Of a stretch of 64,000 nt of DNA, positions 31,238-32,614 are shown in pieces. A program made the position numbers and the translations under genes. The stretch covers positions 128,001 through 192,000 of the forward strand of contig CAVTUQ010000025.1 of assembly GCA_963737905.1 (NCBI GenBank). Direction: 5' to 3'. The stretch is from an uncultured delta proteobacterium. Lineage in GTDB: Bacteria > Desulfobacterota > Binatia > UBA9968. Numbering within the stretch: position 1 is the first letter of the stretch; each line of letters starts with the position of its first letter. A model generated the notes under the pieces. The model had not been told where the DNA came from and made no database searches. It saw nothing but the letters and a program-made list of their open reading frames with translations.

Positions 31238-32614
31238 CTAGCGATAGCTCGTCTCCCAGTAGTTCTTCTCGCCTTTTAGCAGCAAGACTTCTAAAAGCTT
31301 ATTCTCAAAGCGATGGGCAAAACCCACAACTCTCTCCTTTAGCGGGATCACCGTTGTAAACTCGGGTGGGAAAGCGCCGATGCTGGAGGATATTTTGCGC
31401 ACCCTCTCGTCCGTGCATCTTCCTTTGATAATGAACTGACTGTCTTTGAGCGCAAGATCGTAGTCGTATTCTGGCATTTCATCAGGCAACTGCTGCCGAT
31501 TAGGCAGGCCGATGTCAGGTAAGCGCCTCGGAAACTCCAATCGCAGGAAAAGCGCGTTCCCCCGATCCTCGACCGTATAAACGTTTCCGTAGCGACGTTC
31601 GCGCTCGAGTTTTTCAACAAATCCCTTGGAATAAAACCCATCAACCGGAATCGGTATCTCTCTAATGATACCGGTATGCTTTGCTAAGATGGGCTGCAAA
31701 ACCACTCCGAGGGGGACTCCATAAACAGAGGCCGGAAACACCATCTCCCCTGCTGGCTTAACATGCAATATGCCATCCTTCAGACGATAGACTCCCTCGG
31801 CCACCGCCAAACAAAGCCCTACGAGAATATAATTGTTAATTTCTTGGCTGAAGAGAACTGAGGGTCCATGCAGAATAACGGCCACGACCATACAGACGAC
31901 CGGGTAAATAACCGCGTTATGCACGATATTGAGTCCGGTGCTGCCGGCCGCTGTAAACCAAGGACTTTGAACCGCGGCTTCGATCTGTTTTTTGGTGTCA
32001 TGCGGCAAAGCACCCAGCACTGGCTGCGCTAAGATAACCAGAGCCTTGCCCGGCCCCTTGCTTAAAAAGCCGCTACTTTTGTATTGGTTCGAGAGCTCTT
32101 CGAAGCTCTCTGACACTTCACTCGGGAAGGTCTTTTTTGGCCTAATCTCCTTCTTAACCTGGGGTGCAGGCTTTGGAGCGACGGGCGGCGGCGTCACCGG
32201 CTTGGCCGCAGCTGGACTTGCAACCGGTTTTTGGGGTGCTGCCATTTGTTGCGCTAGCGCCGGTGTGGGACTGGCGGGGGACACCGGTTGTTGCTGCGTT
32301 GCGCCAGCAGGCTTCTGTTCAGCATCGGCCTTACGAAATCGCGTCTGAAAATCCTCTCCGAAATTGACATCCTGATGGAGCGCGCGAGCACGGGCGATCA
32401 GAGCCTCTTCTGTCTCAACGTTGTTGGGATCAGTCACGCAGCAGTCCACTGGGCAGACCGCCGCACAGGCCTCGTAATCGTGAAACCCGACACATTCCGT
32501 GCATAAGAGCGGATCGATGACAAAGACGGGGTCTCCTTGGCTAATGGCGTTATTGGGGCATTCGGGCTCACATGCCCCGCAGTTGATGCACTCGCCAGTA
32601 ATCATTGTCGCCAT
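31238..32614 (-). CDS. YfhL-type 2[4Fe-4S] ferredoxin fused to a Pro-rich linker, TM helices and a putative alpha-crystallin-like domain
   Basis: [12 protein letters not shown] and CTEC-x8-CAAVCP, a P/A/Q-rich linker, two hydrophobic helices, and C-terminal ...[29 protein letters not shown]. Confidence 0.75.

Follow-up and report, generated by a model that had tools for sequence, protein, structure and literature searches.

A 64,000-nucleotide stretch of an uncultured delta proteobacterium of the class Binatia (contig CAVTUQ010000025.1, positions 128,001 to 192,000 of the forward strand; hereafter the window, to which all coordinates refer unless another locus is named) carries on its minus strand, at 31238..32614, a gene for a protein of 458 residues. 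The gene encodes, in this order, a 2[4Fe-4S] ferredoxin of the AlvinFdx/YfhL type, a basic disordered linker, an FxGEL motif, a helical module with a hydrophobic hairpin, and a divergent domain of the HSP20/alpha-crystallin fold. It is genuine, conserved across the class and single-copy in Candidatus Binatia. Both end domains fall in known superfamilies, and the helical module, the family of the C-terminal domain and the architecture as a whole are uncurated. A preliminary description of the window, made by eye from the sequence, had proposed a four-part architecture of ferredoxin, linker, membrane helices and Hsp20-like domain, and it is confirmed by family, PDB, fold and model evidence. The same description held that no characterised protein is built in this way; literature searches at title and abstract level, for fusions of a ferredoxin with an alpha-crystallin or HSP20 domain and for Binatota together with ferredoxin, turned up no description of one.

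Conservation of the fused reading frame

The open reading frame starts at an ATG with GGGAG 9 nucleotides 5' of it and runs for 458 codons to a stop codon. With residues 170-458 as the query, 1044 homologues were found at E <= 0.001 among 3237 candidates, so the frame is not a chance one. The best 120 of these 1044 are 72-98% identical to the query, and most of them are 452-470 residues long and carry Fer4 domains. A phylum-wide sample of 201 genomes yielded the C-terminal domain in four, each belonging to the class of the window, and none of the 195 genomes from other classes had a match. Within the class, 114 of 151 genomes, from 58 of 74 genera, have it, each with one match only. Its near-universal presence in a widespread uncultured class makes the gene a probable component of the core physiology of the lineage.

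When the whole protein was used as the query against a sample of 71 class genomes, ferredoxin and domain were found in one open frame, with the full length kept, in 47. The other 24 comprise two genomes that clearly lack the ferredoxin, five in which the gene is cut by a contig end or ambiguous, five with matches to the ferredoxin only and 12 with no match. In four class genomes without the domain the carD locus is rearranged, and no relative of the gene was found there at E <= 1e-3. The order of the gene, rimI, an open reading frame of 160 residues and ispD is kept in all 21 related loci compared, which come from metagenome-assembled genomes labelled as Candidatus Binatia (8), Deltaproteobacteria or delta proteobacterium (7), Syntrophobacter-type (3), and Thermodesulfobacteriota, Chloroflexota and Udaeobacter (1 each). 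The 160-residue frame, which we take to be CarD/CdnL, had no NCBIfam match at E <= 1e-10.

Continuity across the linker, for which the preliminary description had called for read support, was seen in contigs from two independent DNA studies, which bridge it. One DNA contig, from run X1, has GGC inserted in frame within the linker at position 32272, which is a length polymorphism of the low-complexity region. A 499-nucleotide contig from an RNA library also spans the linker into the helical module, although presence in such a library is not proof of transcription. The preliminary description had named, as one of two outcomes that would refute it, that relatives encode separate genes and the fusion is an indel artefact. 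An artefact of assembly or frameshift that joins separate genes is refuted for practical purposes by the single frame in 47 of the 71 class genomes and in hundreds of metagenome proteins, and by the independent contigs that bridge the linker. What survives of the concern is that some orthologues do occur without the ferredoxin, in genomes that encode a YfhL-type ferredoxin elsewhere, which makes the fusion a Rosetta-stone case and not an indel artefact.

The N-terminal ferredoxin

Residues 1-80 (32375..32614, minus strand) form a YfhL/AlvinFdx-type 2[4Fe-4S] ferredoxin, in which the cysteines are arranged as C9xxC12xxC15xxxC19P and then C38xxC41-x8-C50xxxC54P. The NCBIfam equivalog model of the YfhL family, NF033683, matches residues 1-77 over model positions 1-78 of 80, with 104.3 bits against a cut-off of 86. 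The PDB sequence matches are the Allochromatium vinosum ferredoxin (3exy/1blu, E ~2e-26; 1blu 2.5e-26) and E. coli YfhL (2zvs, E 1.1e-19), so that the family named in the preliminary description was the right one. The eight ligand columns are cysteine in 31-33 of the 33 alignment rows that cover the region, three of which carry other ferredoxin types.

The AlvinFdx family is defined (PMC2984482) by an insertion of 6-8 residues between two ligands of cluster II and by a C-terminal piece of 20-40 residues. Both features are found here, the former as the eight residues between C41 and C50 and the latter with a helix at residues 69-79 in the model; the two cluster motifs, the eight-residue insertion and the C-terminal helix are thus shared with 1blu, 3exy and 2zvs. 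The same paper reports reduction potentials below -450 mV and, for one of the clusters, of -650 mV or lower, and describes the gene of Pseudomonas aeruginosa as essential, monocistronic and housekeeping-like, with function and partners unknown. The known members appear there as stand-alone proteins of ~80 residues, almost only from Proteobacteria (PMC2984482). In contrast, the ferredoxin of the window is the N-terminal fifth of a 458-residue protein and belongs to another lineage. It is acidic, with 2 Lys+Arg against 14 Asp+Glu in residues 1-85. In the genome of the window (G000, 87.5% complete) the fusion is the sole YfhL-family ferredoxin found above the cut-off, and it would therefore have to carry the housekeeping role of that ferredoxin too.

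Many Binatia have a second fusion, in which this YfhL-type ferredoxin and a Pro/Ala linker lead into a ribbon-like Cys4 motif (CxxC...CPHC) and then into a charged tail that resembles a coiled coil and for which Pfam finds nothing. These proteins have ~270-310 residues, and examples lie at L116 633-1454 (minus strand, genome G233), L117 598-1518 (minus strand, G260) and L118 316-1146 (plus strand, G110). A rough count gives ~38 of the 71 class genomes, and the second fusion was not found in G000.

The C-terminal domain has a predicted small heat-shock protein-like fold

Beyond residue 80, sequence searches of Pfam, NCBIfam and the PDB gave nothing credible. In the models, residues 331-448 (31271..31624, minus strand) are made up of a helix with an invariant E-R-x-R-R-Y-G sequence and a seven-stranded HSP20/alpha-crystallin-like beta-sandwich with an L-P-D-E-M-P-D-Y loop. 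The domain model reached a predicted local distance difference test score (pLDDT) of 88.4 and a predicted template modelling score of 0.79, and shows one helix and then seven strands. The four stretches on which the preliminary description had based its call of an Hsp20/alpha-crystallin domain are beta-strands in the models (346-350/354-360, 383-390/393-400, 418-424 and 429-437/440-447). In an alignment of residues 318-458 with 73 relatives, conservation is highest in the E-R-x-R-R-Y-G helix, an E-x-P-R sequence after the second strand, the L-P-D-E-M-P-D-Y loop and an S-F-P-x-x-F segment.

Foldseek against the PDB gave 27 matches at E <= 1e-3, and small heat-shock proteins (sHSPs) and CS domains of USP19 are among the matches listed. 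The top matches are sHSPs, with E-values from 4.8e-5 to 1e-3; they include Schizosaccharomyces pombe Hsp16.0 (E 4.8e-5) and Sulfolobus Hsp14.1 (E 6.9e-5). When all representatives were compared with VIA-align, the top 11 matches were all alpha-crystallin domains of sHSPs (Z 8.0-8.7), for example 4rzk_B with a Z of 8.7 and a root-mean-square deviation of 2.3 Å over 78 residues; domains of the CS/p23 type come next, with Z of 6-8, below or tied with the sHSPs. A Z near 8 is only middling, and the weight lies in the dominance of one kind of fold, as among the best 50 matches listed almost all are HSP20-like or CS folds, with PilQ domains and a few others as the exceptions.

The profile evidence is less strong. 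The Pfam HSP20 model (PF00011) has no match to the protein at E <= 1 and matches none of 79 relatives at E <= 0.01, and it finds seven loci elsewhere in this genome, which are canonical Hsp20s. An hhalign comparison of the domain family (29 rows) with these seven Hsp20s only covered 93 columns, with a probability of 71% and an E-value of 3.7e-5; the two profiles stay in register, and 16 extra residues fall at the LPDEMPDY loop. In the ESM Atlas, the named leads for the domain score 0.87. A PDB profile search with the family alignment returned polyferredoxins, PsaC and complex-I subunits among the matches listed, and it is uninformative on the domain since the alignment has rows with polyferredoxin tails. 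The Hsp20 assignment made by eye thus holds for the fold and, weakly, for profile homology.

Compared with sHSPs such as the alpha-crystallin domain of Sulfolobus Hsp20.1 (4rzk), Hsp16.5 and HspA, the domain has the same seven-stranded sandwich, the same kind of disordered region ahead of it and the in-register alignment with the Hsp20s of its own genome. The C-terminal I-x-I/V anchoring motif and dimerisation through the beta6 loop are hallmarks of sHSPs. The domain differs in having no PF00011 match, in the 16-residue conserved loop inserted between strands, in the helix (domain residues 86-92 of the domain model) that takes the place of the beta6 loop, in the invariant ERxRRYG helix that precedes the sandwich and in the lack of an I-x-I tail; many relatives end directly after the last strand. 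It also resembles the CS/p23-type domains of Ncb5or (CS-b5R, 6mv2; Z 7.3) and of Get3/ArsA (3igf and 8elf; Z 6.4, for the HSP20-like domain of a cyanobacterial homologue, and 5.0), in which an HSP20-like sandwich is likewise built into a multidomain protein. However, the partners there are cytochrome b5 and a reductase, or an ATPase, and the likeness is known from the fold only. From these models, the most fitting place for the domain is in the HSP20-like superfamily, as a divergent member outside any curated family.

Two weak PF00011 matches of ~28 bits were seen on contigs C32 and C39 of G000 (L007 and L008). They run over a TGA and lie directly 5' of open reading frames of ~550 residues in the available stretch, presumably Lon-protease-like from the appearance of their sequences.

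The sHSP-like domain is found with and without the ferredoxin

Two orthologues at the same position lack the ferredoxin. In G242, of the same order, the protein has ~340 residues and consists of an acidic low-complexity N-terminus, an FPGEI motif, the hydrophobic module and the domain. In G266, of the same class, a low-complexity N-terminus is followed by an HPGELEESF motif and the domain; the ferredoxin and the hydrophobic module are both missing, and the domain shares 41% identity with that of the window (E 2e-30). Both genomes encode a YfhL-type ferredoxin elsewhere. As positional orthologues lack the ferredoxin, or the ferredoxin together with the hairpin, and yet keep motif and domain, the sHSP-like domain and not the ferredoxin is, judged by these sequences, the constant core part of the protein.

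Among relatives at large, sampled by representatives (one per 50% cluster, 148 matches), Fer4-type Pfam domains occur in 24 of 79 scanned, and no other Pfam partner recurs. The iron-sulfur (Fe-S) partners of the domain include YfhL-like ferredoxins, a dicluster ferredoxin with the reversed motif order, a single-cluster Fer4_13 domain, and Fer4_13 ahead of the domain with four further CxxCxxCxxxC motifs after it, so that in some relatives the domain is flanked by Fe-S domains on both sides. A quick tree of the domain from 74 representatives places all rows of the YfhL type in one clade of 31 (Shimodaira–Hasegawa-like approximate likelihood-ratio test, SH-aLRT, 84); a clade of 25 (SH-aLRT 96) is without ferredoxin, and the other ferredoxin types sit on deep branches. 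Changes of label along the tree cannot be used, since fragments are frequent among the rows marked as lacking a ferredoxin. One cluster (P0159) represents a relative of 419 residues in which a dicluster ferredoxin of reversed motif order is combined with the hydrophobic module and the domain. It lies on contigs of up to 5.6 Mb, which means that complete genomes exist for this variant.

Linker, FxGEL motif and helical module

A full-length AlphaFold2 model from a 47-row alignment had a mean pLDDT of 72.7. Residues 86-160 (32135..32359, minus strand) form a basic linker rich in Pro, Ala, Gln and Lys which is predicted to be disordered from its composition, charge and low pLDDT. Pro makes up 25% of its residues 96-160, Ala 23%, Gln 12% and Lys 11%; there are 12 Lys+Arg against 5 Asp+Glu in residues 86-165, and the pLDDT is below 50 for residues 99-156. 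The Pro/Ala/Gln linker of the preliminary description is therefore real in composition, and at ~80 residues slightly longer than the ~70 given there. The ferredoxin motif and the FxGEL motif could both be located in 96 of 135 relatives, where they are 117-184 residues apart.

The linker is followed by a conserved F-x-[GS]-E-[LV]-x3-F motif (residues 163-171, FPSEVSESF; 32102..32128, minus strand), which travels with the sHSP-like domain and has a pLDDT of ~90 in the full-length model. Of 84 representatives whose domain is complete, 33 have an F-x-G-E-L-x3-F motif 5' of it, whether or not the hydrophobic module is present; the distance from motif to domain is 54-74 residues in the cases checked without the module and ~174 residues with it. 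When the full-length model was used for a fold search, the matches fell almost entirely on the C-terminal domain, and in three rows the aligned range begins at residues 150-161, which hints that the motif may pack on the sandwich. Two metagenome proteins without the ferredoxin (P0128 and P0150) start with MATVITS/MATMNTS, as the ferredoxin does, and then run directly into the FxGEL motif, a pattern that looks like an internal deletion of the ferredoxin.

Residues 185-315 (31670..32062, minus strand) form a helical hydrophobic module of unclassified fold with a pLDDT of 85-97. The model is helical over residues ~160-315, where block means of pLDDT are 73-97, with helices at 187-195, 205-215, 222-249, 258-277 and 299-313; those at 222-249 and 258-277 reach 95-97. 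No Pfam or NCBIfam match was found for the module, and a search of the ESM Atlas with residues 160-320 gave no usable lead.

Within the module, residues 222-277 (31784..31951, minus strand) are a two-helix hydrophobic hairpin which, from hydropathy and charge, probably anchors the protein in the membrane with its two ends on the cytoplasmic side. In a 19-residue Kyte–Doolittle window the highest value, 2.37, falls around residues 226-260, and lower peaks of 1.44 and 1.59 lie near residues 253 and 291; the family-averaged profile has peaks of 1.89 and 1.42, and the stretch 234-248 is hydrophobic throughout. The invariant residues of the hairpin are N229, E273 and R277. The predicted topology follows from the charges, since the mean number of Lys+Arg in 23 diverse members is 3.6 in the N-terminal flank, 0.35 in the loop and 3.4 in the C-terminal flank, as expected from the positive-inside rule. 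Cytoplasmic ends are also required because the C-terminal domain lies directly between Fe-S domains in some relatives. Of the TM-like helices in the preliminary description, a hydrophobic two-helix hairpin with positive-inside charges therefore stands, and membrane insertion itself stays a deduction from sequence.

Possible functions of the fusion protein

We tentatively propose, as a reading that falls somewhat short of an even chance, that the protein is a membrane-anchored, sHSP-like docking or holding platform that is functionally tied to the ferredoxin. The FxGEL motif and the sHSP-like domain would form an autonomous protein-binding or self-assembling platform, which the hairpin would hold at the membrane on its cytoplasmic side. 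On its basic flexible linker the acidic ferredoxin would swing, and the platform could dock, concentrate or protect it, or use its electrons at the membrane. The functional tie is a Rosetta-stone argument, which draws on the occurrence of orthologues both joined to a ferredoxin and free of one, and on the fusion of related domains to ferredoxins of other types. A broader proposal seems to us rather doubtful, namely that sHSP-like domains of this kind are an undescribed family of modules that partner ferredoxins, each dedicated to docking, holding or protecting Fe-S ferredoxins of low potential. Under this broader proposal, the fusion would also point to a first class of partner for the AlvinFdx family, whose essential role has been unknown since 2010.

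Several observations weigh against the platform proposal. Different ferredoxin types have different surfaces, which disfavours one specific docking site, and no redox enzyme neighbours either the Binatia gene or the polyferredoxin variant. The labels 'no ferredoxin' among the metagenome proteins are unreliable, as many of these are fragments. The domain is without the sHSP hallmarks, with neither a PF00011 match nor a visible C-terminal I-x-I tail. For the anchor, the helical module was modelled only as part of the full-length protein, and a crude, position-independent sum on a biological hydrophobicity scale is unfavourable, though not decisive, at +2.5 to +4 kcal/mol for the best segment and ~+8 kcal/mol for the second.

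The preliminary description favoured a membrane-tethered, redox-responsive chaperone or scaffold. As a redox-gated membrane holdase, the sHSP-like domain would be a chaperone for unfolding proteins whose activity is switched by oxidation or loss of the clusters of the ferredoxin, as in other redox-switched chaperones. The HSP20-like fold with its weak profile homology and the disordered N-terminal region ahead of the domain in all orthologues, as in sHSPs, are consistent with such a role. There is also a precedent for a chaperone with a 4Fe-4S cluster in the chloroplast J-domain proteins CDJ3-5 of Chlamydomonas; these likewise join a chaperone-type module to a ferredoxin-type 4Fe-4S module, but the J domain is not an HSP20 fold, and they are plastid co-chaperones of a eukaryote whose function is also unknown. 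However, the near-invariant surface loops and the ERxRRYG helix fit a specific partner better than promiscuous holdase binding, no I-x-I tail is seen, and the genome already has its seven canonical PF00011 loci. The upstream region, with an invariant TTGACA, a short leader, no heat-shock element (sigma-32, CIRCE, HAIR) by eye and no Rfam thermometer, also speaks against it, and we consider the holdase unlikely. Just as improbable in our view is a tethered electron carrier, in which only the low-potential housekeeping ferredoxin does the work and the rest is an anchor for membrane or other localisation. It would agree with the fusion being the only YfhL-family ferredoxin above the cut-off in G000, with the many Binatia that join the same ferredoxin by the same kind of linker to the Cys4 ribbon-like motif and charged tail, and with the housekeeping, monocistronic character of AlvinFdx genes in Pseudomonas (PMC2984482). 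Yet the domain is strongly conserved at this locus even in orthologues that have no ferredoxin, and a mere anchor would not persist alone. An explanation that touches the hairpin and not the partnership is that the protein is soluble and the hydrophobic helices are the buried core of an oligomer, by analogy with the N-terminal regions of sHSP cages. The second helix is indeed only weakly hydrophobic, but the positive-inside charges across the 23 diverse members and the unbroken hydrophobic stretch 234-248 make a soluble protein very unlikely.

If the platform proposal is true, there is a divergent, uncurated branch of HSP20-like domains whose sole recurrent fusion partners are Fe-S ferredoxins, and the alpha-crystallin fold would be used in electron-transfer or Fe-S protein biology, outside the standard picture of sHSPs. 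As the ferredoxin is covalently tied to a candidate partner here, and other genomes of the class encode the two parts separately, the pairing can be tested.

Gene neighbourhood and regulation

The gene is separated by a 106-bp intergenic region from a divergent tRNA-Cys(GCA) gene upstream (32721-32796, plus strand). The region is strongly conserved in 14 orthologous loci, with long invariant blocks. In the alignment of these 14 regions, a -35-like TTGACA (32661..32666, minus strand) is invariant and a TAATTA 17 nucleotides downstream of it (32638-32643, minus strand) is conserved, and only a short leader lies between this pair and the ribosome-binding site. We infer that the two elements are a candidate promoter; a promoter scan did not call the TTGACA site. 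No match by eye to heat-shock elements (sigma-32 promoter, CIRCE, HAIR) was seen in the upstream region, and an Rfam scan gave only the tRNA above threshold and no RNA thermometer.

On the other side, a terminator-like hairpin lies 35 nucleotides after the stop codon and before rimI (31171..31203, minus strand), with an 8-bp CCACAGGA/UCCUGUGG stem, a 10-nucleotide loop and a run of seven U. Its folding energy is -21.6 kcal/mol, with a z-score of -1.46 for a 78-nucleotide stretch; a terminator scan with a loop limit of 8 did not list this hairpin, whose loop has 10 nucleotides. As TTGACA/TAATTA lie upstream and the hairpin with its U run follows the stop codon, the gene is probably its own transcription unit, and AlvinFdx genes elsewhere are likewise described as separate transcription units (PMC2984482). 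The candidate promoter and terminator, and the absence of visible heat-shock elements, argue weakly against a classical heat-shock gene.

Beyond the tRNA gene lies a glutaredoxin 3 gene (grxC; 32869-33087, minus strand; TIGR02181, 97 bits against a cut-off of 90), and both neighbours are as the preliminary description had placed them. The tRNA-Cys(GCA) gene is divergently upstream in 14 of 15 loci examined, and gdh-efp-coaE-grxC is also kept upstream in 6 of the 21 related loci. The tRNA-Cys/grxC neighbourhood is a case of conserved synteny and no evidence of function; the cysteine theme shared by the tRNA, the glutaredoxin and a ferredoxin with 10 cysteines is probably just that synteny. Elsewhere in the family, the variant in which Fer4_13, the domain and a polyferredoxin tail follow each other (P0237 type; L035, L038, L057, L060 and L065) lies downstream of polA and beside a dinB-type polymerase gene, neighbours that say nothing of its role, and the contig of L065 also carries planctomycete-type PSCyt/PSD1 genes.

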